DNA of 64,000 nt from an uncultured Muribaculaceae bacterium (GCA_964371145.1 CAYJKO010000002.1:14330-78329); one strand, 5' to 3'. Shown: positions 1,795 to 53,610, numbered from the stretch's first letter. The notes: a model not told the origin generated them from the sequence alone. Translations and numbers: made by a program.

Positions 1795-1797
1795 TAA

Positions 1798-3066
1798 ATG
1801 TTTGGATTGAAAAAGAAAAAGCCACAGATTACAGAATCCAAGGTGGAAAAAATATTAGAAGAATACATTGACGCAGCGCACAAAGAATTGGATGCGCCGG
1901 CGAACCCTGTATTAAACGAATATTACGAAAAAGATAAATCCAGATTTGGTTTTTGGGGGCTGGATGCCGCCAAATTGGTTAAAACGCCGGAAACTTTGTA
2001 TATTCCGGGCAGTTTTGATGCATATAAATTTACTGCCCTGGGTAATGAATTCAAATTTAAATCAGACGCATATAAAAAATCTATCGAAGAAACTGTATCC
2101 GCCGCAACCAAAATAGTAAACTGGACAAATGATTTAAATTTAAATGAATTATTTTTGAAAAATTCTGTATATTCTGCAAAACATCGTTGGCCATTTACTT
2201 GTAATATTAATTTCGAAGATATAAATACAGACCGCGATAAAATTTTTAAAGTCATAACCCATATGCATAATATCAATTCTGATGCCGCATTGGTAAAAGC
2301 CGGCGCAGGTATGGGATGGGTTGCGCGTAAAAAATTGGATTTAGACCCTCTATTTTATGCTTTTGGGTCAAAATTCTATCAAATCGGAAATAAAAAAACG
2401 GGCGCCACACAAACAATTGAACACAGTGGCAAAGCATTGTTTGAAGAGATTTTAAAAACGACCATAGAACACGATTCTAATTTGGAATTAATAAAATCGT
2501 ATCATATCGGTATGCCGATTACGAAAGAAATTCGTATATTTACAATTGATGGCGCGGTTCAGGCTTTTATACCATATTGGATCGAAGCCGCATTCAAAGG
2601 TCAGTCTGTATACGGCATGAAACCGGGAAAAGATTTCAAAACCGCATTTAAAGAAATAAATACATTTGATAAATCCGATTTGGATTATTTACGTTCCCAA
2701 ACAGAAATTTTGGCTCAATATCCAAAATTCCGTGATTCAAATTGGGCAATTGATTGGGTTACAACTCGTGATGGTGAATGGTATATGACCGATATGCAAA
2801 TTGCCGAATCGTCATACTTGTCTTATAAAGACGCTATTTTCGCAACGAAAGATTCGGAAAAAGAAATTTATAATTTAATGAATAATTGTTTGCAAAAAAT
2901 GAAGGCTCAAAAAGCGGCTATGTCTAAATTGGAACACGTTATGTTTGCAATGATGGGTTGTAAAATGACCATAGCAGGCCAGCTGGAACGTTCTGGATAC
3001 CCAACTCAACGAGAATTGTTGAAAATGGGAAAATTGTTATCAGGGGGGAATCAAAAAACAAAATAA
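1798..3066 (+). CDS. hypothetical protein with ATP-grasp-like C-terminal motifs, inserted between gatA and gatB
   Basis: 422-aa ORF that starts 4 nt after the gatA stop. The C-terminal segment IDWVTTRDGEWYMTDMQIAES resembles the ATP-grasp strand motif (D-f..dG.wy..E.N). Upstream, LVKAGAGMGWV and EIRIFTIDG are consistent with ATP-grasp nucleotide-binding strands. I recognise no housekeeping homolog. Confidence 0.5.
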   Translation: MFGLKKKKPQITESKVEKILEEYIDAAHKELDAPANPVLNEYYEKDKSRFGFWGLDAAKLVKTPETLYIPGSFDAYKFTALGNEFKFKSDAYKKSIEETVSAATKIVNWTNDLNLNELFLKNSVYSAKHRWPFTCNINFEDINTDRDKIFKVITHMHNINSDAALVKAGAGMGWVARKKLDLDPLFYAFGSKFYQIGNKKTGATQTIEHSGKALFEEILKTTIEHDSNLELIKSYHIGMPITKEIRIFTIDGAVQAFIPYWIEAAFKGQSVYGMKPGKDFKTAFKEINTFDKSDLDYLRSQTEILAQYPKFRDSNWAIDWVTTRDGEWYMTDMQIAESSYLSYKDAIFATKDSEKEIYNLMNNCLQKMKAQKAAMSKLEHVMFAMMGCKMTIAGQLERSGYPTQRELLKMGKLLSGGNQKTK

Positions 3067-3084
3067 AAATCCCCATACGGGGAT
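3061..3084 (-). terminator. hairpin (atcccc-atac-ggggat) with A/T run; terminator for the minus-strand tRNA-Phe and plausibly for the plus-strand ORF 1798..3066
   Basis: Perfect 6-bp GC-rich stem at 3069..3084 with a 4-nt loop. On the minus-strand transcript it is followed by tttttatttt. Confidence 0.5.
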
Positions 3085-3090
3085 TGAAAC

Positions 3091-3166
3091 TGGTGGCTAG
3101 GGACGGAATCGAACCGCCGACACAGGGATTTTCAGTCCCTTGCTCTACCAACTGAGCTACCTAGCC
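3091..3166 (-). tRNA. tRNA-Phe (anticodon GAA)
   Basis: Reverse complement gives GGCTAGG-TA-GCTCAGTTGGTAGAGC-A-AGGGA-CTGAAAA-TCCCT-GTGTC-GGCGGTTCGATTCCGTC-CCTAGCC-ACCA. This is 76 nt with a canonical cloverleaf, anticodon loop CTGAAAA (anticodon GAA), a T-loop TTCGATT and an encoded CCA. Confidence 0.9.
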
Positions 3167-3221
3167 GAAACGAAAGTAATAATAAGACAGATTAAATAAA
3201 AAATCAAGGGAAAAAGAAAAA

Positions 3222-4939: not shown

Positions 4940-6244
4940 ATGAAACAATTTTTTATACAAACTTTTGGTTGCCAAATGAACGTGTACGATTCAATTCGTA
5001 TTACGTCTATGTTAATTGACACGGGCTGGGCAAAATGCGACGTGGTCGAAGATGCCGATTTAATCATTTTAAACACCTGCTCTGTTCGCGAAAAAGCAAC
5101 GAACAAGGTTTTTTCCGCATTGGGACGAATTCGTCGTAAAAAAAAGCCTGACGCATTGTTTGGTATTGTCGGATGTGTTGCCCGCGAAGCCGGCGCAGAT
5201 GCTTTCCGACGTATCCCTGAATTGAATTTTGTTCTGGGACCACAAAGTTATCATAAATTGCCAACAATTTTGGAAAATCCAGATTCCAGATTATTAAATA
5301 TCGATCTGGGCGGATTGGAAAAATTTGACGAATTGCCACGGCAAAAAACATCCGACACGGTTGCATTTATTCCAATCCAAGAAGGATGCAATCACGTCTG
5401 TACGTATTGCATTGTGCCGTACACACGCGGGCGTGAATTATCACGACCATTCAATGATGTTATGGCAGATACAATGAATGCGATAAATAATGGCGCTATG
5501 GAAATATATTTTCTGGGTCAAAATGTCAACGGCTATAAATTCACAGATGAAAATGGAAAATTATTTACTTTGGCAGATTTAATAATCGAAACTGCAAAAC
5601 AAGAATCCGTTCATCGCATACGTTTTACGTCCAGTTATCCAACCGAAATGACAGACGAATTAATTGATTTATTCCGTACAGAACCAAAATTGATGCCTCT
5701 TGTTCATCTGCCAATCCAAAGCGGCAGCGCAGATGTTTTAAAAAGAATGAACAGACCATATTCATTAGAATTATATAAAGATATAATTGATAAATTACGT
5801 ATCGCAAATCCAAACATCAAAATTTCATCTGATTTTATAGTTGGTTTCCCCGGTGAAACCGACGCAGATTTTGAACAAACGATGGAAATTGTAAAATACG
5901 TTGGGTATGTAAATTCTTATTCTTTTAAATACAGCCCTCGTCCGCATACGGCAGCGGCATTGATGACAGATCAGATACCTGAAAAAATAAAAGCAGCTCG
6001 TTTGAAAATTTTGGATGATTATTTAAACGTTTTACAACGTGAATTTAATGAATCTTTTATCGACAAAATCATACCTGTTATGTTTGAAAGCATCGACCGT
6101 ACCGGTAATTATTTAATAACCAGAACGCCCCACGGCCAGCAATGCTTGATACCAAAGCCTGATTTCAAATTACCACCCGTTATAAATGTTAAAATAACAT
6201 CTGGGAACAAATCTACTTTACGCGGTGAAATTGTTATCGATTAA
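4940..6244 (+). CDS. miaB: tRNA-i6A37 methylthiotransferase (radical SAM MTTase)
   Basis: 434 aa. N-terminal MTTase domain (FIQTFGCQMN), radical-SAM CxxxCxxC (CTYCIVPYTRG), C-terminal TRAM domain. Confidence 0.85.
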   Translation: MKQFFIQTFGCQMNVYDSIRITSMLIDTGWAKCDVVEDADLIILNTCSVREKATNKVFSALGRIRRKKKPDALFGIVGCVAREAGADAFRRIPELNFVLGPQSYHKLPTILENPDSRLLNIDLGGLEKFDELPRQKTSDTVAFIPIQEGCNHVCTYCIVPYTRGRELSRPFNDVMADTMNAINNGAMEIYFLGQNVNGYKFTDENGKLFTLADLIIETAKQESVHRIRFTSSYPTEMTDELIDLFRTEPKLMPLVHLPIQSGSADVLKRMNRPYSLELYKDIIDKLRIANPNIKISSDFIVGFPGETDADFEQTMEIVKYVGYVNSYSFKYSPRPHTAAALMTDQIPEKIKAARLKILDDYLNVLQREFNESFIDKIIPVMFESIDRTGNYLITRTPHGQQCLIPKPDFKLPPVINVKITSGNKSTLRGEIVID

Positions 6245-7782
6245 AACACAGTGTTCGCACCGAAATTAAACCTGTGACCTATTTTGTTATGCGGCATATA
6301 ATCTGCCGCATACATAAAATTCACACCAAACTTATCCGCAACAGAAAAATAATTATGTTTGACACCAAAAGAATAAATATTATTGGTCTGTAAGATTAAA
6401 AACGATTCGTATTTATTTATCGCGCCACCGTATTGCTTTTCGTATTTTAAATTTATACCTGCCCTTGCATAAACATCTTGCTCATTATTATTTAAAATAC
6501 TATACCGATTAAAACCTGAACCTATAAATGGGTGCAAATCTACATTTCCCGACTTGAAAGAAACGAATCCAAAATCTCCAGACATATAAACAGAATCAGC
6601 CGCCACGTTTAAAATCAAATCACCTGAATTGAATACACCATCTGTTTCATATTTTGCATAATTATAACCGATTACACCATCAAACCAATTCGTATCATGC
6701 TTATAGCCTAAATGTAATGCGCCACCATAAATATCACCAACATAATCATTATATTCATCCGAATTTTTAAAGCTTCCAAAATGTCCCGATAATCCAATGC
6801 TGAAATTTCCGAAATTTAAAAACGATTTTGCGTTTAAAATATTCATATTTATATCATCTGACATTATATAATTTGCGTCCATTTCAAAATCGTCTTTTTC
6901 TTTATAATCTTTAAAACCCAAAACCATATTATTATTAAAAGTTTTCAACGGATTCAATAAATTTAAAGGATTAAACAATACTGATTTTGCCATAATTGAA
7001 TTCATTTCTGTTGTACAACTGGCGTTATCCATCGCATTTATAAAACCGGCATTAACATTTGATGTGCGCATAGAATTCAAAACAGAACCAGTCGTAACAC
7101 CCAAAACCTTTTTATAATCGGTTTCTCTGACGATATTCAAAACCAAATTTCCGTCCTGTACGACAGATTCCGCCGTATACAACGGATTTAAATTTAAAAC
7201 ATTAATATCTATATCCGCGCCAGACAATGAAACATTTTTAACAATAATTCCGTCTTTTTGTTCGTCCATATTTAATGTTAAATTTCCTTCGATAATTATA
7301 TTTTTCAGATCCAAAACAACATCCATAAAAAGACTGGTATCTTTTAATATTAATTTATCTGCATTTGTAACATTACCCATTATTTCAGATGTTTTAATAT
7401 TATTATTTCCCGTGACTTTAACAGAATAATTCAAATCATCATCAACTGAAATGCTTCCCAAAGATTCTTCAGAATCGATTATTTGTATTAAATTCGAATT
7501 TGTGTTGCCTGAAAATACAGACCCTATATTTCCATAATTATAAATATTTAAATCACAACCGTCACAAATATGAAAATCGGCGGACGTTATATTTGCAAAG
7601 TTCTTTATAGTAATAGAATTTTCAGAATATAAACTTTCCGCTGTAACAATTGAATTTTCTGCTATATCAATAGACCTGTCGAAGCCATATGAAACACCAA
7701 CGGCATATATAAAAGCATCTGCCGCATGCGCCAAAGTTGACGAAACAATTCCTATAAAAGCTATTATTAATTTGTTATCCAT
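6241..7782 (-). CDS. outer-membrane beta-barrel / autotransporter-like surface protein
   Basis: 513 aa. Signal peptide (..TLAHAADA), repetitive N/S/G-rich passenger region. C-terminal region has alternating aromatic/hydrophobic residues and ends ..GANTVF (C-terminal Phe), typical of OM beta-barrels. Confidence 0.5.
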   Translation of the reverse strand: MDNKLIIAFIGIVSSTLAHAADAFIYAVGVSYGFDRSIDIAENSIVTAESLYSENSITIKNFANITSADFHICDGCDLNIYNYGNIGSVFSGNTNSNLIQIIDSEESLGSISVDDDLNYSVKVTGNNNIKTSEIMGNVTNADKLILKDTSLFMDVVLDLKNIIIEGNLTLNMDEQKDGIIVKNVSLSGADIDINVLNLNPLYTAESVVQDGNLVLNIVRETDYKKVLGVTTGSVLNSMRTSNVNAGFINAMDNASCTTEMNSIMAKSVLFNPLNLLNPLKTFNNNMVLGFKDYKEKDDFEMDANYIMSDDINMNILNAKSFLNFGNFSIGLSGHFGSFKNSDEYNDYVGDIYGGALHLGYKHDTNWFDGVIGYNYAKYETDGVFNSGDLILNVAADSVYMSGDFGFVSFKSGNVDLHPFIGSGFNRYSILNNNEQDVYARAGINLKYEKQYGGAINKYESFLILQTNNIYSFGVKHNYFSVADKFGVNFMYAADYMPHNKIGHRFNFGANTVF

Positions 7783-26393: not shown

Positions 26394-27047
26394 TTATGGT
26401 TTTAAAACAAATCTGACTTTGTTTGAAATGTCGGGATTATTTTTATTAATCAACCACCAAACATTTCTGACGCGCGGCGCATCATTACCAACATTAAAAT
26501 GAATTTCTTTAAAATCATTTGGATTTAATGCGTTCAACAAAGTATATATACGTCCCGCAAATATAGCCTTTTTATTATGCAAACTTTCAAAGCAAATAAA
26601 ATCTGGGTTTAACACCCCTATTTTTTCCAACAAAGATTCTTTCAAAGCCATAATATCATATTCATCCATTTTTATACACAACCCAAATTCTTTGTTTTTA
26701 AAAATATCGTCTTTAATTGGCAAAATCCCAGATATAAAATTATCTAAATTTTTTGCATCAACATTAAATCGAACCGAGTCCGCACCATTTTTAAAACAAG
26801 TTATAACATCGCCCAAAACAAAGCTGATATCTGAATCATAATCAAAACAAACCATAATTTTGGTCGAAGATTTTTCTAACCAAGCCCATAAAGATTCCAC
26901 AAATTCAGGTTTTGATATTATATATTTAATATTATTTTCATTTGCAATCGCAGACAGCCGCATTAAATCCAAGGCTTCTGTATAATACACAGAATCCCAT
27001 ACAATTAAATCTTTTATTTCGGTTAAAATATCATTTTTTTCAATCAT
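26394..27047 (-). CDS. hypothetical protein (weak DeoC-like TIM-barrel resemblance)
   Basis: 217-aa ORF with no signal peptide. It shows only weak pattern similarity to class I aldolase-like segments (..NIKYIISKPEFV..). Divergently oriented from the 27.1 kb locus. Confidence 0.4.
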   Translation of the reverse strand: MIEKNDILTEIKDLIVWDSVYYTEALDLMRLSAIANENNIKYIISKPEFVESLWAWLEKSSTKIMVCFDYDSDISFVLGDVITCFKNGADSVRFNVDAKNLDNFISGILPIKDDIFKNKEFGLCIKMDEYDIMALKESLLEKIGVLNPDFICFESLHNKKAIFAGRIYTLLNALNPNDFKEIHFNVGNDAPRVRNVWWLINKNNPDISNKVRFVLKP

Positions 27048-27103
27048 TTCCTTTTTACTTTATCATATTTATGATAAAATTAAAAGAAAGAAGGAAAAAA
27101 AAT

Positions 27104-27907
27104 ATGCATAAATTATTATTAGGAATTTTATGGTTGTCGTCTACATCTTTAATCGGCAGCGCATTATTAAATTATAAATATTCATTTAATGTATTCGAAA
27201 TCGATCATTGGGTTTATTTGGGTCAAATACAGGCTCAAAATGCAAACGACATTTCAAATGGTTTTTATATAACGCTAATTTCCATCACGATTATTATTTT
27301 GTTTGGCTTATATATAATATTACACCACAAACATAAATTACAATCCGCGCCTAAACAAATTATTTTGCCATTACCGCAAACTTATTCAAAAGAAACCGAA
27401 CAAACAAACAATATAATTCAAATGGAACGCCCACCCAGATTAAACACATCGCCCGGCATGATCCATCAAAGAACCCAACCAATTATGAATGTGTCACCAA
27501 AAAACATAGCTGGCGAAATGACAGATATTTTTAAATCTAATAATTATACGGTTAAAACGTCTCCTAAAATTGGGCAATCCCGCCCTGATTTATTTGCAAT
27601 CGGGTCTAATGAAACTTTATGGATAGGTTTAAATAACGCAACCAATGACACAATGGCCGCAATGAAAAATGTTTTAAATGAAATATTTACAGAAGTTTTA
27701 GAAGATATAGAAATCGACATAAAATTATTTAACGTTAATTCAAACGTGTCTAACCCAGACAATGATTTTTTATATTTTTCTAACATAGATAATTTAAAAA
27801 ATTATTTAACACCAAACAAAAGTGTTGATTCGGACATAGAAAAAGATTTTGAAACATTAATAGATCATTTGATTAAATATTTAAATAATACGAACACCGG
27901 GGCATAA
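27104..27907 (+). CDS. membrane-anchored hypothetical protein; possible N-terminal component of a toxin locus
   Basis: Start at MHKLLLGILWLSSTSL.. (AAGGAA RBS). N-terminal hydrophobic segment plus a second TM (GFYITLISITIIILFGLYIIL). The C-terminal about 150 aa contain a RPDLFAIGSNETLWIG segment reminiscent of PD-(D/E)xK nuclease-fold cores (D..E, Lys not obvious). Its stop lies 1 nt before the next ATG. Confidence 0.45.
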   Translation: MHKLLLGILWLSSTSLIGSALLNYKYSFNVFEIDHWVYLGQIQAQNANDISNGFYITLISITIIILFGLYIILHHKHKLQSAPKQIILPLPQTYSKETEQTNNIIQMERPPRLNTSPGMIHQRTQPIMNVSPKNIAGEMTDIFKSNNYTVKTSPKIGQSRPDLFAIGSNETLWIGLNNATNDTMAAMKNVLNEIFTEVLEDIEIDIKLFNVNSNVSNPDNDFLYFSNIDNLKNYLTPNKSVDSDIEKDFETLIDHLIKYLNNTNTGA

Positions 27908-27908
27908 A

Positions 27909-28412
27909 ATGATAAGCAAACATTTGGCGACTAAAAAATTAGACGAATATTTATTGACCGGGTTACCGATTCGCGAATTCAATGTCAAACCATGTTCAGT
28001 TGAAAAAGATTGGTTTGCAAAATACATTCGTGTCCGACAAGAATTCATAGAATCTTTGGCAGACAACATGGAAGATTTAATATTTTTTAATTTCCCCCAA
28101 GATGTTTTTATGGATTTATTAATGGGCTCAAAAATTCCTGAAAACATTTCTATTCGTCTGCGCGTACCTCTTGTTTGGGGCGGAAAATTAGAAATAGACA
28201 ATATGTTTTTATGCAGAACTTTTAATGATTCTCATAATATGGATAAATTTATTATTTCACAAAGCGCTTTTCAAACGGTATGGTTACCGGACCCTGCAAA
28301 AAAAGTTTATATGTCCACAAATATAGGTGGCGCAGGAGATGGCGGAAATTCCGCCGAAGACAGAATGACTCAAATCGCGATGCAACAAGCCGCTTCAAAG
28401 GGAAGGATTTAA
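27909..28412 (+). CDS. candidate HNH/EndoVII-fold toxin domain protein (variant core)
   Basis: 167 aa. The segment RLRVPLVWGGKLEIDNMFLCRTFNDSHNMDK aligns position-by-position with the HNH core pattern ([28 protein letters not shown]: GG, acidic residue, N-L, LC, N). The canonical first His position is Arg/Val here. Translationally coupled to the ORFs on both sides. Confidence 0.4.
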   Translation: MISKHLATKKLDEYLLTGLPIREFNVKPCSVEKDWFAKYIRVRQEFIESLADNMEDLIFFNFPQDVFMDLLMGSKIPENISIRLRVPLVWGGKLEIDNMFLCRTFNDSHNMDKFIISQSAFQTVWLPDPAKKVYMSTNIGGAGDGGNSAEDRMTQIAMQQAASKGRI

Positions 28413-28415
28413 AAA

Positions 28416-28853
28416 ATGAACGGGAAAGAATTTTCAGACTTTATCAAATCAAACAATGTAAAAATAATACCGCCTTTTGAAGATCGCGAATTAATTTTAA
28501 CAAACGCCGGTCTGCAAAAAATGAGAGCCGCGATATTACCGAATGATTTAATTGAATTGTATAAAAAAGTCGGTGGTTTTAATTTAAACGGTGCATACGT
28601 TTTTGGACCGAAAGAATTTTTACGACAAAATACATCCGCCGTACCGTCTATTATGGAAATCAACAAACAATTGACCGATTTTCAATGTATGCGAGGAAAA
28701 ACCGTATTCGCCAGAAATGATTTATTTTGGTTTGCATTTGATGTGAACGGTGAATTTTTTATGTTAGATAATTTAACATTAAAACCATTAAAAAAATACG
28801 ATAATTTATTTAATGCAATATGCGACTGTTTAACCGTGGGAAGATTAAAATGA
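28416..28853 (+). CDS. SUKH-1 (SMI1/KNR4-like) immunity-protein candidate
   Basis: 145 aa. Carries FED..L...AILPNDLIELYKKVGGFNLNG (the LP.dY..fl...nGg signature) and the C-terminal FWFAFDVNGEFFMLD (f.iA.D..G..f.lD), as in SUKH-1 immunity proteins. Sits directly after the nuclease-like ORF. Confidence 0.5.
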   Translation: MNGKEFSDFIKSNNVKIIPPFEDRELILTNAGLQKMRAAILPNDLIELYKKVGGFNLNGAYVFGPKEFLRQNTSAVPSIMEINKQLTDFQCMRGKTVFARNDLFWFAFDVNGEFFMLDNLTLKPLKKYDNLFNAICDCLTVGRLK

Positions 28854-29077: not shown

Positions 29078-31030
29078 TCAAGACTTATAAGATTTTCGCA
29101 CACAATAAAATACATATATCAATATTGATGAAAATGCAAATATAATTAACATCATTAAATCACGTCCAATTGAACGATATATTGTATTGTGCCCCTGACC
29201 TATTTCACCATCTAAAACGCCAATTGCTCCAATTGGCAATTGCGCCATTATTTCACCATTTGATGACACAAATGCGCTGATGCCGGAAAAATTAGCACGC
29301 ACAATCGGTAATCCTGATTCTATTGCATATCTGCGCACCATATCCAAATGTTGAAAACTTCCCTGGGTTTTACCAAACCAAATATCATTTGTAATGTTTA
29401 TTATAACTTGCGGTGTTTTGTTTGAATTTTTCGGGATTAACGAATCGGTAAAAACAATTTCATAACATATAGCGGGTGCAAAGTTGAATGATATATCATC
29501 ATCTAACTTTAATTCTATTATCTCTGGGCCAACTCCGCTGGATAATTGACCAGGTGTTGGAATTATATCGCCAAAGGGTCTGTATTCGCCGAATGGAACC
29601 AAATGTGATTTATTATATATTTTTTCTATATGCCCGTTTTTATCCGCAACAATCATAGAATTATATAAATGTCCATTTTTGTAACTGGTTGCACCCGTTA
29701 TTATTGTTGTATTTAATATTTTTGCCATGGGCAAATAATCATCTGTTACAACATATGGATATGTTGTTTCTGGAAAAACAATTAAATCAAATTTTTTATC
29801 ATCCGAATTTGACATAGATATTAATTTTTGAACATTACGTTCGCTTGATTGTCTTAAATGTTGCGGCAAATGACTTTCTTTGTCTTCGGCAGAAAAAGAC
29901 GGTTGCACTATTCTGACAGATATTTTTTCTTCGGGTGATGCGGTGTTTGATTTTTCAATATTTGCGTGCCCCACAAAAACGCCTATGACAATTAAAGATA
30001 AAAATATCACAAATGTTATTTTATTTTGTCTGTTACGTTTCATAATTAAATCTACCACACTTGCAATTAAACCAATTAAAACAAAAGACAAACCCAATGC
30101 GCCCCACATCGACATAGAATTAGATAACAATGGGCACGGCAAAGAAATATTTGCAAATGGATTCCATGGGAAACCTGTCAACAACCATTCGCGTAACCAT
30201 AAAACAAATGTCCAAAAAAATGCGAATAAAATTGATGAACCCGGTAAAAAACGCCGTGCACGCGCCATCAATACAAATGGAGTTGAAAAAATTATACCCC
30301 CGAAAAAAGCAATACCAATTAATGATGGAATTGTCCATATTGCAAATTGAGCCGCCAATTCGGGAATTACATATATTGAATTCAACATCCACCAAAACAT
30401 AGACAAAGCATATATGGATGCAAATGGCATAATTTTTACGAATGATTTATAAACAGAATTTTTATCATCATCTTTAACGGTTAAATAATACGCCCCACCT
30501 ATTCCAATTAAAGATAAAAACCACATATTATATGGCGCAAATCCAAGAGATGCAAATCCACCGCATACGGCTAAAATTAAGATACGCATCCAATCTTTGT
30601 TTTTTTCTTTATATGGATTTTTTATGTTTAATTTCTTTAATATTTTAATCTCTGCTGTCTCCATTTTGTTTGCATCTTTATCGTCCAAATGGTCAAAGCC
30701 CAATAAATGCAAAGCGCCATGTACAATTAAATGAATGGTGTGATTTTCTATCGTTTTATTTTGTTCTGCGGCTTCACGAATAACCGTATCAATTGATATA
30801 TATACATCACCCAACAATTCATCATCGCCCATTTCAAAAGACAAAACATTTGTCGGTTTATCAAATCCCCGATATTTTTTATTTAATTTTCGAATCTCGG
30901 CATCATTTGTAAAAACTATTGATAGTTCAGCATTTTTATTATGCGCGATATCTATTTTTGATATAATTTTATCTGTATCAATATTATATTCATTCCATCT
31001 TTTATCGGTAATATCTATATACGCTTTCAT
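29078..31030 (-). CDS. ybeY-lnt: fusion protein: rRNA maturation RNase YbeY (N-terminal) and apolipoprotein N-acyltransferase Lnt (C-terminal)
   Basis: 650-aa continuous ORF. Residues about 1-140 are YbeY (ELSIVFTNDAEIRKLNKKYRGFDKPTNVLSF.. HTIHLIVHGALHLLGFDHLDD, the H3xH5xH zinc motif). The rest is Lnt: multi-TM N-domain, then a CN-hydrolase domain (..LIVFPETTYP.., ..NKSHLVPFGEYRP.., ..CYEIVF..). Confidence 0.75.
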   Translation of the reverse strand: MKAYIDITDKRWNEYNIDTDKIISKIDIAHNKNAELSIVFTNDAEIRKLNKKYRGFDKPTNVLSFEMGDDELLGDVYISIDTVIREAAEQNKTIENHTIHLIVHGALHLLGFDHLDDKDANKMETAEIKILKKLNIKNPYKEKNKDWMRILILAVCGGFASLGFAPYNMWFLSLIGIGGAYYLTVKDDDKNSVYKSFVKIMPFASIYALSMFWWMLNSIYVIPELAAQFAIWTIPSLIGIAFFGGIIFSTPFVLMARARRFLPGSSILFAFFWTFVLWLREWLLTGFPWNPFANISLPCPLLSNSMSMWGALGLSFVLIGLIASVVDLIMKRNRQNKITFVIFLSLIVIGVFVGHANIEKSNTASPEEKISVRIVQPSFSAEDKESHLPQHLRQSSERNVQKLISMSNSDDKKFDLIVFPETTYPYVVTDDYLPMAKILNTTIITGATSYKNGHLYNSMIVADKNGHIEKIYNKSHLVPFGEYRPFGDIIPTPGQLSSGVGPEIIELKLDDDISFNFAPAICYEIVFTDSLIPKNSNKTPQVIINITNDIWFGKTQGSFQHLDMVRRYAIESGLPIVRANFSGISAFVSSNGEIMAQLPIGAIGVLDGEIGQGHNTIYRSIGRDLMMLIIFAFSSILIYVFYCVRKSYKS

Positions 31031-31031
31031 A

Positions 31032-32636
31032 TTATTTTTCTTTTAATTTTTGTTTTAAATTGTCTAATTTTTTATCAAAACTTTTTTTATTCTTTTTTGA
31101 AATTTTAAAGTTTTGTTTGGCTGCATTTAATTCTTTTTCGGCCGCAACATATTCTTCTTTATCCATTAAATATTTCGCTTTTTTTAAACGCAGTTCTGCG
31201 GCGGAAAAATACAATTCTGCTTTTTCTTCATCTTCGAATTCTGCGCCAGACAAATTAAATAAAGCGCGTCTTATTTCTATCATTGCTGAATCCAATTTAT
31301 TTTCTTTGACTGCGCCAAAGAAATTTGTAGCATTATCGATTTTATTATCAATCAAATCTAAAACGGAATCTTTTTTTATTTTGTTAATTTGAGATTTTGA
31401 AACATAAAAGTCTGATGGCACTGATTGATTTTCCAAACACGATATCATATATTCCCACCCCGGAATAGTTTTTTGATTTAATCTTTCACGCAAAGTCATA
31501 TCTGATTTATGTTGACGTCCCGACATCATCTTTTCGATAAATTCTTTACTGAAATCAAATTCATCATTTTTTATAACCTCGCGATAATTTATTGCAAAAA
31601 AACCATCTATATATGCATCTAAAAATTGTTTTGAATTAATTTGTCCTGTTGCCAATGCGGCGCATACCCAACGTTTATTAATTGTACCAGGATATTTGCT
31701 TTTGGCACCTGCCCCATACATAAAGGAATTTGCTTTTTGTTCATCAGACTTATTTCCGTTAAATCCATTTTTGCAAATAGATTTTAAATGACCCGGCAAT
31801 TGATATCCCGCTATGCATAAAGCCAGATAATCATTAATTGAAATGGGATCGGACAAATTATTTTTTAACAATCTGAACAAACTGGCCTTATCTGTTTGCC
31901 CCATTGACGTATATGTCGTAGATGTACAATAATCAAATCCCAATTTTTTACCAATGGTATCATTTACATTTATATTCGGTAAAGATTGGCCGGGACGTCC
32001 ATTTTTTCTAGAAATTTGTCTTTCGAAATTTATTTCATTATTTTTATCCACAGGCCAAAAATATGTAACACCCGGACCATATGTATAAACATTTTCTGCC
32101 CGATTTACTTTTGGTGTTTTATAATATGTTTCGGCGTACAAAATCGCAGGATACAAAACATCAAACAAAGCGGCACATTGCCCCAGAAAATCTTCTGAAT
32201 TTGGATCCAATATTTTTTCATTAAAATCTATATTTCCTTTTTCTGTTTTCTTTACCTCGGTTTTAATCTGCGAAGCCATATCCTTGGCAGAATCCGCCGT
32301 ATAGAAGCCTGCGAACATTAATAACGGAATAGAATAATACAAAATATGAGCAGATAAATTCGGATGTTTTTTGGCAAAATATTTTAATCCAACGGATTTG
32401 TCCATATCGGGGTTTGTTTTTGAAAATACATCCTCTAATTTTCTTAAAATTTTATTATCAACCGCCAATAAACGGGTCGCCCAAAACATAAATTGAGTTA
32501 TTCCTGCGACACCCATTGCCGATTTTTTTATAACTTCTCCGCCAATATTTTTAGCCTTTAACTTACCGACATTTTTTCTGAAATTTCTTGCCAAGTTTTC
32601 CGGTTTTTTTACATTTTTTGTAAATTTATCTGACAT
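31032..32636 (-). CDS. hypothetical protein with C-terminal coiled-coil
   Basis: 534 aa with no recognisable catalytic motifs. A short N-terminal hydrophobic segment. C-terminal charged coiled-coil/TPR-like stretch (..EEKAELYFSAAELRLKKAKYLMDKEEYVAAEKELNAAKQNFK..). Its stop lies 1 nt from the ybeY-lnt start. Confidence 0.45.
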   Translation of the reverse strand: MSDKFTKNVKKPENLARNFRKNVGKLKAKNIGGEVIKKSAMGVAGITQFMFWATRLLAVDNKILRKLEDVFSKTNPDMDKSVGLKYFAKKHPNLSAHILYYSIPLLMFAGFYTADSAKDMASQIKTEVKKTEKGNIDFNEKILDPNSEDFLGQCAALFDVLYPAILYAETYYKTPKVNRAENVYTYGPGVTYFWPVDKNNEINFERQISRKNGRPGQSLPNINVNDTIGKKLGFDYCTSTTYTSMGQTDKASLFRLLKNNLSDPISINDYLALCIAGYQLPGHLKSICKNGFNGNKSDEQKANSFMYGAGAKSKYPGTINKRWVCAALATGQINSKQFLDAYIDGFFAINYREVIKNDEFDFSKEFIEKMMSGRQHKSDMTLRERLNQKTIPGWEYMISCLENQSVPSDFYVSKSQINKIKKDSVLDLIDNKIDNATNFFGAVKENKLDSAMIEIRRALFNLSGAEFEDEEKAELYFSAAELRLKKAKYLMDKEEYVAAEKELNAAKQNFKISKKNKKSFDKKLDNLKQKLKEK

Positions 32637-34010: not shown

Positions 34011-34751
34011 TTAAAACAATACATTAATTTTTCCGCCGATGAAATTTTCATCTTTTTCAAAATTATAATCAATGTATCCAAAATATTGTGTTCTTCCGAA
34101 ACGTGCACCCAATTTTGCGAATACAGATTGTTCGTCGAACAATGAACTGGTTGATTTACGGATATTAAATCCAAATCCACCCGTCCACGTATTTGTTATT
34201 CTGAAATATGCCTCTGGTGTGATATCAATAAAAGACATTCCGTTAATTTCATCAAACAACCAACTGGATTTACCGGTAATCGCCAAAGTCATATAAGACC
34301 AATTATATCCCCCGCGAACCCCAACCGTGTAAATTGTACCATCAAATGCCGGGCTAAACATATTTTCAGCAGACAAGAAATCCATACCAAATAAAATGTC
34401 ATATGTCATTTTATCGCCCGCATCAGACATTCTGTATGTTCCGTTTAATGAAAAACTGGAAAAACCATCATCATACCCATTGAAATCTTCTTCGTATATA
34501 AAACCCAACCCCAATGACAATCGATCAAATACGTTATATGATAAAGATTGTTCCAATTTCAACAAACCTTCATTATTAAAACCTAAATCTGTTTTTGACA
34601 ATAAATCCTTTTTTTTACCAAAGAATAATGGATCGCCCGTATCCAAACCAGAATTTAATAAATCAGCTCGGGGTGTTGCCGCATTTGCCGCACAAACAAA
34701 CATCATTGCAAAAATTGGTGCAATTAAAAATTTCACAAAATTATTTTTCAT
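34011..34751 (-). CDS. outer-membrane beta-barrel protein (small, OmpW/Opa-like)
   Basis: 246 aa. Signal peptide (..FVCAANA), alternating hydrophobic/aromatic beta-strand pattern, C-terminal ..KINVLF. Confidence 0.55.
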   Translation of the reverse strand: MKNNFVKFLIAPIFAMMFVCAANAATPRADLLNSGLDTGDPLFFGKKKDLLSKTDLGFNNEGLLKLEQSLSYNVFDRLSLGLGFIYEEDFNGYDDGFSSFSLNGTYRMSDAGDKMTYDILFGMDFLSAENMFSPAFDGTIYTVGVRGGYNWSYMTLAITGKSSWLFDEINGMSFIDITPEAYFRITNTWTGGFGFNIRKSTSSLFDEQSVFAKLGARFGRTQYFGYIDYNFEKDENFIGGKINVLF

Positions 34752-34770
34752 ATTTTATATTTCCCTTTTA

Positions 34771-35919
34771 TTAAAATGTTAAGACGCCCTGCAACCCAAA
34801 TGACATTTCGGAATTGTTATCAATTGTAGTTGTTCCGATTTGTGTATAAGTATTTAAACCAGCAGATGGTTCATACCAATAAAATTCTAATTCCATATCA
34901 TCTGCTGTGTTATAAAATTGTCCTTTTCCATAAAATGATAATGCAAATCTATCTGTTGGTTGCCATCCGATTGCGGCGCGGAAATTACCTTGTGAACTCC
35001 AATCATAATCACCCAAAACGGCTTCTACATTCAAAGTCCAATCTTGATTCAATTGTGTAAACACACCCAACCCTGCTTCTAAAAACACAGATGTTTGGTC
35101 GCCTCTTTTATATGCGATAAAGAAACCTTTTCCATCTTCTTCGAATCCATTTCCGTAATTATCGCCATCAAAAGTAACGGCCGTTGCGCGCGCCAATCCG
35201 TAAATTGTATGGTTTTCAATTTTGTAACCGGCCTTTGCGTCGAATGTAAAGAAATCACCTAAATCTGTATATCTTTGATAATATCCAGAAACTGTTCCAA
35301 CCCATTCATAATTATCAACAAATTGCCACAAGGCGCCGATGCCGTATGATGCCAATTTTGTATCTGACATGCTGTCGTCTGGTTCTGTTGCCCAATCCAT
35401 AGTATATTCAGCCGCATCTAATTTCGCGCTTAACATCAAAGCAAAATTGTCTGTTATACCATAGCTTAAATCTTCTTTGATATAAAAGGTTGAAGAATCC
35501 CACGTTGCTTCTAAACCATCAAAACCCGGGATTGTTGGCGTATTTAACACCAAATCATAACCAGAATTTACATAAGAAATATCTGTAACAGATCCAAATT
35601 CACCTTTTTTAGGTTGAAAAAATGGGCTTAACAAATAAACTTCGTGGTTATCATTATTTCCATATTTTGGTTTTTCCAAATTTAATCTTGGGCTTTCAGG
35701 TTTTTCATATCTTGTATACAGTTCAGTGTTTTTATTATTTTCACCAGTGTAATATAAATTAGCCTTTGGTCTTTGATAGCTTGTATATTTAACCTTTGAT
35801 ACGGTTACAGTTGTAGAAACGTCACCGCTGCTTTTTGTGTATGTTGTTGTATTTGCAACCGCCGGCATTAAACCAATTGCGGTTAACAAAATAACGGATA
35901 AAGACACTTTATTTTTCAT
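34771..35919 (-). CDS. outer-membrane beta-barrel protein (porin/MOMP-like)
   Basis: 382 aa. Signal peptide (..MPAVANTT), Tyr/Gly/Asp-rich amphipathic strands, C-terminal ..LQGVLTF (terminal Phe). Confidence 0.55.
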   Translation of the reverse strand: MKNKVSLSVILLTAIGLMPAVANTTTYTKSSGDVSTTVTVSKVKYTSYQRPKANLYYTGENNKNTELYTRYEKPESPRLNLEKPKYGNNDNHEVYLLSPFFQPKKGEFGSVTDISYVNSGYDLVLNTPTIPGFDGLEATWDSSTFYIKEDLSYGITDNFALMLSAKLDAAEYTMDWATEPDDSMSDTKLASYGIGALWQFVDNYEWVGTVSGYYQRYTDLGDFFTFDAKAGYKIENHTIYGLARATAVTFDGDNYGNGFEEDGKGFFIAYKRGDQTSVFLEAGLGVFTQLNQDWTLNVEAVLGDYDWSSQGNFRAAIGWQPTDRFALSFYGKGQFYNTADDMELEFYWYEPSAGLNTYTQIGTTTIDNNSEMSFGLQGVLTF

Positions 35920-48122: not shown

Positions 48123-48142
48123 AAAAGCCTTCTTTTTTATTT
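48104..48142. terminator. bidirectional terminator between convergent J-domain gene (+) and trxB (-)
   Basis: AAGAAGGCTtaaaaaAGCCTTCTT hairpin (9-bp stem), with an A-run 5' and TTTTTTATTTT 3'. Confidence 0.8.
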
Positions 48143-49036
48143 TGAATTCAAATATGCGATTGCATCCATACCGGCGCTGCACCCTGCACCAACGGCTGTT
48201 GCTATTTGCATTTTCAAATCAGATTGAACGTCACCCGCAACGAACATACCGGTCGGCAATTCATTTTGGTTCAAACGGCCCATTTTATCACGTTTAACGG
48301 TTTCAGATAAATAATCTGTATTTGCTTCGTGACCGATTGCGATAAACAAACCGTGGCAAACAATTTCTTCGCCAGACGTTGTTGTTGCAATTAATTCGCC
48401 ATCTGTTGACCCATCTTTTTCTTTCAAAGATTTTAATTCAGTATTGAATACACATTCGATTTTTTCATTTTCGTGTACGCGATCAACCATAACTTGTTCC
48501 GCGCGAGAAAAATCTTCTTTGCGATAAACAATTTTTACAGATTTTGCAACGTCCGCCAAATATAACGCATCATTCAAAGCAGAATTTCCACCACCAATTA
48601 CCAATACATCTTTATCTGTGTAAAAGAATCCATCACATGTCGCACAATAAGAAACGCCACGACCGAATAATTCTTTTGCGCCTTCTATTTCTAACTTACG
48701 TGGGGATGCGCCCGTTGATAAAATAACAGATTTACCGGTATATTGTGTGCCATTTGCGCCTGTTACAACGAATCCTGTGTCGCTGTCGCCTGAAATAGAT
48801 ACAGCCGGAGTCATAACAACTTCTGTTCCAAATGTTTCGGCCTGAGCTTTCATAAATTCAGACAATTCCAAACCGCTGCCTTTCCAACCTGGATAATTTT
48901 CCAAAACGGCGATACCGGCTGTTTGACCACCCAATTTATCACCACCCAAAATTAAAGTCTTTTTGCCTGCACGCGCCGTATACAAAGCGGCAGTCAAACC
49001 CGCAGGTCCAGACCCCAAAATAATAATATCATACAT
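48137..49036 (-). CDS. trxB: thioredoxin reductase
   Basis: 299 aa. FAD-binding GSGPAG, redox-active CATC (SYCATCDGFF), NADPH-binding GGGNSA. Confidence 0.9.
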   Translation of the reverse strand: MYDIIILGSGPAGLTAALYTARAGKKTLILGGDKLGGQTAGIAVLENYPGWKGSGLELSEFMKAQAETFGTEVVMTPAVSISGDSDTGFVVTGANGTQYTGKSVILSTGASPRKLEIEGAKELFGRGVSYCATCDGFFYTDKDVLVIGGGNSALNDALYLADVAKSVKIVYRKEDFSRAEQVMVDRVHENEKIECVFNTELKSLKEKDGSTDGELIATTTSGEEIVCHGLFIAIGHEANTDYLSETVKRDKMGRLNQNELPTGMFVAGDVQSDLKMQIATAVGAGCSAGMDAIAYLNSK

Positions 49037-49223
49037 AATTTTTCTCCGTTTATTATTACTATTATATATATGTTTATATTGAACAAAAACAAGACTAACA
49101 CATAAAAAACAAAATACAAAGATATATTTTTTTTAAAAATATTGATTTTCCAAGGTTTTTTTTCAGATTAAAAATGTTCATAAATAAACGCCTATAAAAA
49201 GTCAAGCATATAAATTAAAAAAA

Positions 49224-49252
49224 TTGAAAAAAATGTGTTTTTATTATATAAT
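49224..49252 (+). promoter_or_regulatory. sigma70-like promoter for nrdJ-pduO (TTGAAA -17 bp- TATAAT)
   Basis: TTGAAA at 49224..49229, TATAAT at 49247..49252, exact 17-bp spacer. Located 89 nt upstream of the RNR start. Confidence 0.5.
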
Positions 49253-49254
49253 AA

Positions 49255-49302
49255 TTACTATATATTGTGTTTAATCAACAAAATTAACACTATTAGTAGT
49301 GT
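49255..49302 (+). promoter_or_regulatory. two tandem NrdR-box-like 16-bp palindromes
   Basis: Box A at 49255..49270 is TTACTATATATTGTGT. Box B at 49287..49302 is ACACTATTAGTAGTGT. The recalled NrdR consensus is acaCwAtATaTwGtgt. The box centres are 32 bp apart, immediately downstream of the -10 element. Confidence 0.55.
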
Positions 49303-49340
49303 TTTTTATAAAATTACTTTTAAAAACAAAGGGCGTAAAA

Positions 49341-51206
49341 ATGAACGAATCATTAAAACTTTTATCAGATTTAACATACTATATGAAATATTCTAAATAT
49401 ACGCCCCAGATGAAAAGACGTGAAACTTGGGCAGAAACCATTTTACGTAACAAAGAAATGCATTTGAAAAAATTCCCACAGGTTGCAGACATCATAGAAA
49501 AAGCATACGAATTGGTTTTACAGAAAAAAATTTTGCCTTCTATGCGCTCTATGCAATTTGGTGGCGCAGGTATAGAACAAAATAATGCACGTATGTATAA
49601 TTGTTCGGCCATAGGCATAGATTCTATCGAATCATTTCGCGATTTATTTTATTTATTATTATGTGGCACAGGTGTTGGTTTTTCTGTGCGTCACAACTTT
49701 GTTGAAAAATTACCAGAATTTGTAAAACAAACTGGGCACACTGAAATATTCAAAGCACCCGATTCTATCGAAGGCTGGGCAGATTGCGTATACGCCCTGT
49801 TCCGCGGTTATTTTGTAACGGGAAATAAAATCGAATTTGATTTATCCGCGATTCGTCCAAAAGGTTCATTAATAAAATCCAGCATGTGCGCAGCGCCAGG
49901 TCCAGAACCTTTAAAATTGTCTTTGGATAATTTAACAAAAATGTTGGATAAAAAATTAGAAATTGGCGCAACAAAATTAACATCTATTGATTGTTATGAT
50001 ATATGTTGTTTTATATCAGAAGCCGTTCTTGCCGGCGGAGTCCGCCGTAGCGCGATGATTTGTTTATTCGACAAAGACGATGAATTAATGTTACATGCAA
50101 AAGAAGGCAACTGGTGGGAAGAAAACCCTCAACGCGGTTTGGCAAACAATTCTGTTCAATTCGATCGCGATAATACTTCGCGTGAAGATTTCGACAAAAT
50201 ATTTACACAATGTCAAAATTCAGGTTGCGGTGAACCGGGCATCGTTTGGACAAACACAAATGATTGGTTGGTAAATCCATGTTGTGAAATATCTATGCCA
50301 TCAAAAGGATTTTGTAATTTAACATCTGTAAATTTGGGCTCTATCGAATCACAATCTGATTTCGAAGAACGTTGTTTTTACGCATCCGTATTGGGAACAT
50401 TACAAGCCTCATATACAAACTTTAAATACATCGATGACAAATGGAAAGAAAACGCAGATGATATGTCTTTAATCGGAGTATCATTAACCGGTATCGCATC
50501 CCATCCAAATTTAAAAGAATTGGATTTCAAATCTGCGGTTGAATCTGTAAAAGCTGCGAACGATGAAATATCAACAAAAATCGGAATTAAAACCGCCGAC
50601 AGATTAACGACCGTTAAACCAGATGGCACCGGTTCTCTTGTATTGGGTACATCCAGCGGCATACACCCATGGCATGCAAAACATTATATTCGTCGTCTGC
50701 GTATAAATAAATTGGAACCATTGTATACATATATGGTTGAAAATTTCCCTCAATTGGTAGAAGATGAACAAATGAATCCGGATAAAAACGCGGTTATTTC
50801 TATGGTTATTCGCGCACCAGAAGGCGCCGTTACACGACGCAACGAAACGGCAACAGATTTCTTGGAACGCGTAAAATACATATTTGAAAATTGGGTGGTC
50901 CCAGGACACAGATCTGGCGACAATTACAATAACGTATCTTGCACATGTAACATTAAAAATCATGAATGGGACGACGTACGCAATTGGATGTGGGATAATC
51001 GCGACAGCTATACCGGAATATCTTTATTACCATATTCAGACGCCAGCTATATCCAAGCACCATTCGAAGACACGAACGAAGAAGCATACAAAGAATTTTT
51101 GAAAATTGTTCCAGAATTACATTTGGAAAATATTGAAGAAGAAAAAAACTTTGTAAACTTTGGACAAGAAGCGGCCTGTGCGGGCGGTGCTTGTGAATTG
51201 ATATAA
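49341..51206 (+). CDS. nrdJ: ribonucleotide reductase, class II-like monomeric (RTPR-type, adenosylcobalamin-dependent)
   Basis: Start at MNESLK.. (AAGGG RBS), 621 aa. No ATP-cone. Active-site motif NPCCEISMPSKGFCNLTSVNL (N-x-C-x-E thiyl-radical loop plus the CNL cysteine). C-terminal redox pair CAGGAC (C-x4-C). Followed directly by a cobalamin adenosyltransferase gene. Confidence 0.6.
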   Translation: MNESLKLLSDLTYYMKYSKYTPQMKRRETWAETILRNKEMHLKKFPQVADIIEKAYELVLQKKILPSMRSMQFGGAGIEQNNARMYNCSAIGIDSIESFRDLFYLLLCGTGVGFSVRHNFVEKLPEFVKQTGHTEIFKAPDSIEGWADCVYALFRGYFVTGNKIEFDLSAIRPKGSLIKSSMCAAPGPEPLKLSLDNLTKMLDKKLEIGATKLTSIDCYDICCFISEAVLAGGVRRSAMICLFDKDDELMLHAKEGNWWEENPQRGLANNSVQFDRDNTSREDFDKIFTQCQNSGCGEPGIVWTNTNDWLVNPCCEISMPSKGFCNLTSVNLGSIESQSDFEERCFYASVLGTLQASYTNFKYIDDKWKENADDMSLIGVSLTGIASHPNLKELDFKSAVESVKAANDEISTKIGIKTADRLTTVKPDGTGSLVLGTSSGIHPWHAKHYIRRLRINKLEPLYTYMVENFPQLVEDEQMNPDKNAVISMVIRAPEGAVTRRNETATDFLERVKYIFENWVVPGHRSGDNYNNVSCTCNIKNHEWDDVRNWMWDNRDSYTGISLLPYSDASYIQAPFEDTNEEAYKEFLKIVPELHLENIEEEKNFVNFGQEAACAGGACELI

Positions 51207-51231: not shown

Positions 51232-51750
51232 ATGGCAAGAATTACAACAAAAAATGGTGACAGTGGGATGACTCAATTAAATCCCACAACAATCGCCAGC
51301 AAATCACACCCTGTTATAAAAATACAAGGTGATTTGGATGAATTGTCTTGCGCATTGGGAATGTGCGGAGACAGATTCGACGATGTGCAAACTTTCCTTT
51401 CCGAAGTTATGGGATATTTTTATTACAAATCATCCGACGACAGAAAAGTTATGGAACAAATTCAAAATATGGAAGAATATATAACAACGCATAATAATTC
51501 TATTCCTCCGTTTTTTGTAAATCCGCGCGGGGCTATATCTCTTGCACGCGCCATAGCCCGCCGCGTAGAACGAAATATTGTTGAATTTTACGAGACGGAC
51601 AGAAAATTATCAGACGACGAAAAATACGGAATGAATATGTCATCCGTTATTCAATATATTAATCGATTAAGCGATTATTTATTCGTTCGCAGCTTTGAAC
51701 GTGAAATCGCACAACCCGAATTATTCAAAGACGAAATGGCAACTGGTTAA
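51232..51750 (+). CDS. pduO: ATP:cob(I)alamin adenosyltransferase, PduO-type
   Basis: 172 aa. ITTKNGDSGMTQL......IKIQGDLDELSCALG matches the PduO-type N-terminal motif (T..GD.G.T.L.....v.k....v.a.G..DELns.iG). Confidence 0.7.
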   Translation: MARITTKNGDSGMTQLNPTTIASKSHPVIKIQGDLDELSCALGMCGDRFDDVQTFLSEVMGYFYYKSSDDRKVMEQIQNMEEYITTHNNSIPPFFVNPRGAISLARAIARRVERNIVEFYETDRKLSDDEKYGMNMSSVIQYINRLSDYLFVRSFEREIAQPELFKDEMATG

Positions 51751-53143: not shown

Positions 53144-53175
53144 AAAAAACCGGTCAAATGACCGGTTTTTTATTT
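53144..53175. terminator. bidirectional terminator between convergent serS (+) and hypothetical gene (-)
   Basis: AACCGGTCAaaTGACCGGTT hairpin, A-run before it, TTTTTTATTTTATTTT after it. Confidence 0.8.
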
Positions 53176-53610
53176 TATTTTTACACCAAATGAATTTAAA
53201 GATTTAAATTCCAAATACATTTGTTTAAATGAATTTGAATTCATAATTTCCCATCTTTTTGCGAATTCCAACAATTTGGATTTTCCAATTGCGTCAAAAC
53301 GATTATTACTTTTATCTGTATAATATTTTTCGCTTAAAAAATGTAAAAATTGTTTTACGAACACATATCTGTGATTTCCATATTTTGTAACCAGCCCCGC
53401 TCCGTTTAAAACCATATTATTTTTTAGGCGATAATGATAATGTACAGAAAAAGGCAATGTTCCTATGATTTCATCTAATTTATTAACTTCGTTCAATATT
53501 GATATTTTATCCGATTTTTTTGGTTCCGCATCCATCTCTGCCATCATAATGTCTTTGGCAGAATTCAAAATTTGTTTTATAGTTGCGTTATAATCTATAT
53601 TTTTTTTCAT
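53170..53610 (-). CDS. hypothetical protein (orphan, 146 aa)
   Basis: ORF bounded by terminators. Lys/Asn-rich with no recognisable motifs. Confidence 0.4.
   Translation of the reverse strand: MKKNIDYNATIKQILNSAKDIMMAEMDAEPKKSDKISILNEVNKLDEIIGTLPFSVHYHYRLKNNMVLNGAGLVTKYGNHRYVFVKQFLHFLSEKYYTDKSNNRFDAIGKSKLLEFAKRWEIMNSNSFKQMYLEFKSLNSFGVKIK

Follow-up and report, generated by a model that had tools for sequence, protein, structure and literature searches.

A predicted tandem NrdR operator at the nrdJ promoter of an uncultured, reduced-genome alphaproteobacterial lineage

Genes of the locus

The window, the whole 64-kb stretch of DNA analysed here, has a GC content of 35.6% and carries ordinary Gram-negative chromosomal genes, including gatA/B, tatC, lolA, recJ, thrS, ftsK and mutL, together with greA, lptF/G, an xerC-like gene, serS, typA and recA. 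The only ribonucleotide reductase (RNR) gene seen in it is nrdJ (49341-51206, + strand), which encodes a 621-aa RTPR-like, adenosylcobalamin-dependent class II enzyme. In this protein the Pfam family Ribonuc_red_lgC scores above its cut-off and the RNR-II insertion domain reaches 23 bits, below the cut-off of 27 bits; comparison with the Lactobacillus leichmannii ribonucleoside-triphosphate reductase (PDB 1L1L) gives 7e-30. The best NCBIfam match is TIGR02505 (RTPR; 4.9e-72), and because its 243 bits fall short of the 340-bit cut-off, the NrdJ of the window is, by this score, a divergent member of the RTPR type. No ATP-cone domain was matched in NrdJ by Pfam.

The locus was compared with 15 related MAG loci (L001-L015) of about 10 kb each, giving 16 genomes with the window included. 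A gene for a PduO-type ATP:cob(I)alamin adenosyltransferase (51232-51750, + strand; Pfam PF01923, TIGR00636) starts 25 bp past nrdJ, with serS next, and nrdJ and the adenosyltransferase gene are probably co-transcribed. Every relative with a locus reaching that far (14/14) has the same gene directly 3' of nrdJ, at 62-78% identity. On the other side lies trxB, encoding thioredoxin reductase (48137-49036, - strand; TIGR01292, 292 bits, below the 343-bit cut-off); it is found near nrdJ in 14 of the 15 relatives, either divergent or co-oriented. These conserved neighbours therefore make the cluster one of an enzyme, the maker of its cofactor and an electron-donor reductase. In the window, trxB and nrdJ are divergent and separated by a 304-bp spacer of 17% GC, and it is this spacer that holds the regulatory features described below.

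Architecture of the predicted promoter and operator

The spacer contains a -35-like hexamer, TTGAAA (49224-49229, + strand), and, 17 bp past it, a -10 hexamer, TATAAT (49247-49252, + strand). Together they match the sigma-70 consensus at 11 of 12 positions and form the best promoter-like site of the spacer; six sites of at least 11/12 occur over both strands of the window, so the match, though real, is less exceptional than the box pair described next. TTGAAA-17-TATAAT is a candidate promoter, from which transcription would start at about 49259-49261.

Directly downstream lie two boxes resembling the binding site of NrdR, a widespread bacterial repressor of DNA-precursor synthesis: box 1, TTACTATATATTGTGT (49255-49270), and box 2, ACACTATTAGTAGTGT (49287-49302), separated by a 16-bp linker (49271-49286); none of the three is assigned to a strand. 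The box starts are offset by 32 bp, the predicted transcript start would fall inside box 1, and box 2 would cover about +28 to +43. Counted against ACACWATATATWGTGT, box 1 has 2 mismatches (14/16) and box 2 has 3 (13/16). Box 1 carries C4, A6, A8, T9, T11 and G13, while box 2 carries C4, A6, T11 and G13 and has TA, not AT, at its centre. Between C4 and G13, the A+T content is 8/8 (100%) in box 1 and 7/8 (88%) in box 2. The pair lies 39-86 bp upstream of the nrdJ ATG, with a gap of 38 bp between the end of box 2 and the ATG. A ribosome-binding region, AAGGGCG (49329-49335, + strand), was read from the sequence 5-11 nt before the ATG; AAGGGCGC is found before the nrdJ ATG in most relatives.

An earlier sequence-only reading of this DNA had placed the promoter hexamers and both boxes at these coordinates; all were found there, its match scores and the 32-bp spacing were reproduced, and the consensus it had used agrees with the published acaCwAtATaTwGtg(t) (PMC4009431). 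The two 16-bp boxes that it had called palindromes are imperfect ones; as read from the sequence, 5 of the 8 symmetric pairs hold in box 1 and 7 in box 2. One description in that reading needs adjustment. It had the boxes overlapping the promoter; the 11/12 promoter is present, but box 1 abuts the -10 element, starting 3 bp after it, and overlaps neither hexamer.

The requirements of NrdR for its operator have been mapped in detail. Binding needs both boxes, with C4 and G13, 8 bp apart, being critical; the central A8T9 is dispensable, and at least 63% A+T is required between C4 and G13 (PMC13584703, in which about 60,000 NrdR motifs were surveyed). The sequence of the linker is immaterial; its length is about 15-16 bp, with 14-17 bp binding well and a second optimum at 24-27 bp (PMC12051234). 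The box pair upstream of nrdJ agrees with all published sequence criteria: C4/G13, A6/T11, A+T content, linker length and position at an RNR promoter. The central TA of box 2 is a rare variant.

Conservation across related genomes

The relatives are 68-83% identical to the window in NrdJ and 61-75% in SerS, and their GC content ranges from 34 to 52%. Their deposited labels are uncultured Alphaproteobacteria or 'Rickettsiales bacterium', and their habitats are mouse gut, termite gut and an anoxic spring; one relative (L009) is a closed chromosome of 716 kb. The source lineage of the window is an uncultured alphaproteobacterium of gut and anoxic habitats with reduced genomes. Three of the related records (L002, L009 and L012) were deposited as 'uncultured Muribaculaceae bacterium'; these are likely mislabelled, because their NrdJ, SerS and TrxB sequences and their operator group with those of alphaproteobacterial MAGs.

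In the alignment of the spacer across the 16 genomes, mean column identity is 39%, and three islands stand out. Positions 3-14 of box 1 are invariant (16/16). In box 2, positions 3-6, 11, 13 and 16 are invariant (16/16), including C4, A6, T11 and G13; positions 1-2 and 7-10, including the central dinucleotide, are variable, and at positions 12, 14 and 15 the window alone deviates, with the box 2 of the relatives reading ACACTAYCTGTTGATT. Against the consensus, the relatives score 14-16/16 in box 1 and 10-12/16 in box 2. The linker measures 16 bp in the window and in L015, against 17 bp for each of the remaining 14 relatives; its columns are poorly conserved (about 0.1-1.7 bits each), and the flanks drift too, whereas the T residues immediately 3' of box 2 are conserved.

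This natural variation independently reproduces the mutational map published in 2026, with C4, A6, T11 and G13 fixed and the central dinucleotide and outermost positions free. Such a correspondence across 16 genomes is hard to explain except by selection for NrdR binding. The sequence-only reading had seen here the architecture of NrdR repression at an RNR operon, a view that the published sequence criteria and this phylogenetic footprinting support.

The near-consensus promoter is private to the window. At the homologous position in the relatives there is no match of at least 9/12, and the only -10-like hexamers near the gene are TATATA or TATATT, both inside box 1. The position of RNA polymerase relative to the boxes is therefore uncertain; in every genome the boxes would coincide with the likely -10 region or immediately follow it, which is the usual placement of NrdR sites, with the exact geometry a matter of prediction. 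The same observations can be used to argue that the conserved DNA is simply a core promoter, in which the TATATAT centre of box 1 would serve as the -10 element and the downstream block as the initially transcribed or discriminator region; A+T-rich palindromes inherently resemble -10 elements. However, a -10 element accounts for about 6 bp, not for 12 invariant bases that include C4 and G13, and it leaves unexplained a second block, 32-33 bp away, in which the NrdR-critical bases are fixed and the palindrome centre is variable. The window, moreover, has a separate consensus TATAAT upstream of box 1. As a replacement for an NrdR operator this explanation is very unlikely, and the two roles are compatible, NrdR boxes commonly overlapping promoter elements (PMC13584703).

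Comparison with known NrdR systems

One of the closest known systems is Escherichia coli nrdHIEF, whose operator consists of box 1 TTGCTATATATTGTGT and box 2 CAACTACATCTAGTAT (PMC13584703, PMC12176259). The window's box 1 is identical at 15 of 16 positions to the E. coli box 1, which binds NrdR in vitro (PMC13584703, Table 1). In both cases an RNR promoter carries a pair of boxes spaced by about three helical turns, with the essential C4 and G13 and a box 2 less consensus-like than box 1. They differ in that nrdHIEF encodes a class Ib enzyme, responds to Fur and other inputs, has a 15-bp linker and has experimentally shown binding, whereas the window's operator belongs to a class II RTPR-like nrdJ, has a 16-bp linker and is predicted from sequence.

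The Streptomyces coelicolor nrdRJ operon is alike in placing NrdR boxes at a B12-dependent class II RNR; there, the cryo-EM complex has a tetramer with ATP and dATP on two boxes that overlap the start site (PMC9110341). The nrdR gene of S. coelicolor shares a transcript with nrdJ and is autoregulated, and the operator there has G+C-rich boxes with a 15-bp linker; in the window, by contrast, nrdR is not near nrdJ. NrdR boxes also precede the class II RNR genes of Thermotoga maritima and Pseudomonas aeruginosa (PMC13584703, Table 4; PMC4409342), as they do here. T. maritima has three boxes with 14-bp linkers, compared with two boxes in the window; in P. aeruginosa nrdJab is split and additional regulators are involved, whereas in the window a cobalamin adenosyltransferase gene is the downstream operon partner.

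As relayed in PMC4009431, the predicted NrdR regulon (Rodionov and Gelfand 2005) is marked by acaCwAtATaTwGtgt in tandem boxes with whole-turn spacing at nrd promoters. Set against that account, the window differs in nothing of substance, and the 17-bp linker usual among its relatives is borderline for the common class of 15-16 bp. The locus is a new instance of a thoroughly described system and holds little new biology; it provides a clean case, backed by comparative genomics, of predicted NrdR control among uncultured alphaproteobacteria with reduced genomes.

Search for the nrdR gene

The sequence-only reading had reported no nrdR gene in the window, and this was borne out: tblastn with E. 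coli NrdR gave no match there, and Pfam, applied to most long ORFs, returned no protein with an ATP-cone or Zn-ribbon. Nor did tblastn with E. coli NrdR find nrdR within the approximately 10 kb around nrdJ in the 15 relatives. With E. coli NrdR as the query, the 120 homologs listed were all from Enterobacterales, and no NrdR of alphaproteobacterial type came up among representatives clustered at 50% identity. An artificial, A+T-rich NrdR query of alphaproteobacterial type retrieved proteins seemingly mostly from marine and soil alphaproteobacteria. Alphaproteobacterial NrdR proteins are about 65-75% identical across orders, and their gene typically follows glyA; the glyA-nrdR order was confirmed in two loci, both from unrelated genomes.

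A metagenome scan with the codon-biased pattern QVKDSRP...FTTFE yielded 63 nrdR loci. A homolog search that started from one of these, L076, led to a clade of NrdR proteins of 150-157 aa on low-GC MAG-type contigs in public metagenome assemblies. In the nrdR loci of this clade (L081-L095, L104 and L110) the gene order is a reduced one, rpiB-glyA-nrdR-nusB-pyrG, in which nusB follows nrdR and the intervening riboflavin genes are gone; the usual glyA-nrdR-ribD order is seen in L016. The alphaproteobacteria reached by these searches generally encode a well-conserved NrdR, those on low-GC MAG-type contigs included. A separate observation concerns a metagenome contig of 51% GC (L030), where 1442-3212 contains a divergent 171-aa nrdR with the variants KRRR, KFTTFE and RFVSVY; this gene adjoins, in divergent orientation, a gene for a CcrM-like N6-adenine DNA methyltransferase with a DPPY motif.

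Links between these nrdR loci and the operator-bearing lineage were sought in several ways. The nrdR-bearing MAG records CAYPVK01, CBDQYX01, JAZRBO01 and CASECI01 include none of the 15 operator-bearing MAGs. The only genes shared by nrdR loci and lineage loci that could serve for an identity test are serS, on L108, and a gene with a weak SPOR-domain match, on L110. Membership of L108 in the lineage was rejected: its SerS is 35% identical to that of the window (true relatives, 61-75%), and its tetranucleotide correlation with the window is 0.37. Contig names beginning with 'k87_', which might have tied two nrdR contigs to the Zodletone MAGs, were likewise rejected at tetranucleotide correlations of 0.37-0.60. 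Several loci of the rpiB-glyA-nrdR-nusB clade correlate with the window at 0.81-0.85, within the 0.70-0.87 of the true relatives, and only 2 of 49 background nrdR loci reach 0.80; this signature is suggestive but discriminates only weakly. Longer pieces do not cleanly separate the nrdR clades: the 18.9-kb nrdR locus L110 has a mean correlation of 0.74, no higher than L046 and L047, which belong to a different nrdR clade.

No NrdR box pair was seen at the alphaproteobacterial nrdR loci examined, including those of the rpiB-glyA-nrdR-nusB clade, and because of this, autoregulation of nrdR through a box pair appears unlikely in that clade. Rickettsia lacks nrdR, according to a review (PMC4009431), and this is therefore a real caveat for reduced alphaproteobacteria. 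An nrdR gene is nevertheless likely to be present elsewhere in the genomes of the operator-bearing lineage.

A different protein might bind the boxes instead, above all in the event that nrdR has been lost from the lineage, as from Rickettsia, which would make this an orphan or re-used operator. Speaking for this are the failure to find nrdR in any sequence tied to the lineage, its reduced genomes, as illustrated by the closed 716-kb chromosome, and an invariant block 48 nt upstream of box 1, at which other factors probably act. Against it, nothing known besides NrdR would hold C4, A6, T11 and G13 together with three-turn spacing across genomes of 34-52% GC. NrdR is present in 77% of bacterial genomes (PMC13584703) and in every alphaproteobacterial group reached by the searches, and some low-GC nrdR loci fall within the tetranucleotide range of the relatives, which is weak evidence. 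Taken together, these points make binding by another protein quite improbable, and NrdR stays the preferred ligand of the box pair.

RNA-level reading and chance expectation

The DNA from box 2 onward could also be imagined to act as RNA, with box 2 and the following T-run forming a hairpin and U-tract attenuator or a structured 5' UTR leader. In the window, AACACUAUUAGUAGUGUU, at box 2 and its flanks (49284-49308), can fold into a terminator-like 7-bp hairpin of -5.3 kcal/mol followed by UUUUUU, and the conserved T residues directly past box 2 fit such an element. This hairpin is restricted to the window, however: the relatives' box 2 reaches -0.5 to -1.2 kcal/mol, with most positions unpairable. 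The stem is weak and A+U-rich, a terminator scan found none, the spacer has no Rfam match, and box 1 is located at the predicted start or ahead of it. An RNA element is accordingly a highly improbable explanation compared with an NrdR operator acting at the DNA level.

How often NrdR-like boxes arise by chance was estimated from the window itself. Single sites with at most 3 mismatches occur 3 times in 64 kb, against 1.46 expected, so a single box is unremarkable. Besides boxes 1 and 2, the only such site is ATCCAAAATATTGTGT (34076-34091), which lies inside an ORF, has no partner and is probably due to chance. With the limit set at 3 or at 4 mismatches per box and a linker of 14-17 bp, a pair occurs only once in the 64-kb window. 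First-order Markov simulation of the window, run 300 times, never gave a comparable pair, and neither did any of 20,000 simulated 304-bp sequences with the spacer's own composition of 17% GC. The sequence-only reading had held that box-like palindromes at comparable density in A+T-rich intergenic DNA would count against it; checked within the window, the other intergenic DNA (4.1 kb of a total of 4.4 kb) contains two sites at 4 mismatches, both partnerless, and no comparable pair. When the requirement was relaxed to the four core bases, no more than 5 mismatches and a linker of 14-17 bp, 130 kb of relatives' loci gave the nrdJ box pairs only, and 571 kb of unrelated loci gave zero box pairs. 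A chance origin of the pair in this extremely A+T-rich spacer, which the 17% GC and the near-expected number of single sites might favour, is effectively refuted by these simulations and by the position-specific conservation of the pair in 15 other genomes, some of them at 45-52% GC.

Proposed regulation of nrdJ

The box pair is very probably a canonical NrdR operator on the nrdJ-adenosyltransferase promoter, which would block RNA polymerase when dATP is plentiful. Starting from the observed site, its statistics, its conservation pattern and the identities of the genes, NrdR binding and the direction of regulation are predicted as follows. By analogy with Streptomyces and E. coli, NrdR, a repressor composed of a Zn-ribbon and an ATP-cone, would form a tetramer with ATP and dATP and place one dimer on each box, contacting C4 and G13 and kinking the A+T-rich centre. 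Box 1, 3 bp past the -10 element, would cover the predicted start, with box 2 downstream of it. From this placement over the start region, bound NrdR would be expected to obstruct the polymerase, keeping it from forming or leaving the open complex. When dATP falls and ATP alone is bound, NrdR would assemble into oligomers that are unable to bind DNA, and nrdJ would be transcribed.

Since the RTPR-like enzyme has no ATP-cone match, this transcriptional loop may be the cell's main, perhaps only, dATP feedback on dNTP synthesis. The presence of the adenosyltransferase gene in the nrdJ operon suggests that NrdR also controls cofactor supply. If a host is found, the lineage would offer a simple system for the physiology of NrdR.

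Upstream invariant block

Upstream of the promoter lies the block AAGTCAAG (49199-49206, no strand assigned), exactly 48 nt from box 1 and at about -57 from the predicted start. All 16 genomes keep its GTCAAG unchanged and at the same distance from box 1, and AAGTCAAG occurs once in the window. The relatives have further upstream blocks, ATATTGATAC, TTTTTGTGC, TGATTCG (a GANTC site) and CAGAAAACGG, regardless of the orientation of trxB; of these further blocks the window retains only AAATATTGAT (49138-49147). When compared by eye with sigma-70, heat-shock-type, CtrA, DnaA, IHF and LexA sites, AAGTCAAG fitted none. GANTC sites number 182 in the window against 179 expected, and are neither enriched nor depleted.

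These conserved upstream blocks hint at a second input besides NrdR. In such dual control, NrdR would act together with a second factor at AAGTCAAG, and maybe at the further upstream blocks, including GANTC in most relatives. We regard this as a tentative idea that is rather unlikely to hold; were it correct, dNTP synthesis would be coupled to a further signal, for example the cell cycle.

Other observations in the window

Nine sizeable ORFs of the window, 145-534 aa long, lack a Pfam match at E<=1e-5. Regions containing them are 1798-3066, 6241-7782, 26942-28853, 31032-32636, 34011-35919 and 53170-53610; those at 26942-28853 form a co-oriented run of three, and 34011-35919 contains two.

At 29078-31030 (- strand), a 650-aa ORF combines a YbeY endoribonuclease domain with the Lnt domains LNT_N and CN_hydrolase. 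YbeY and Lnt are usually encoded by separate neighbouring genes, and the joined ORF could reflect a genuine fusion or could result from choosing the longest ORF.
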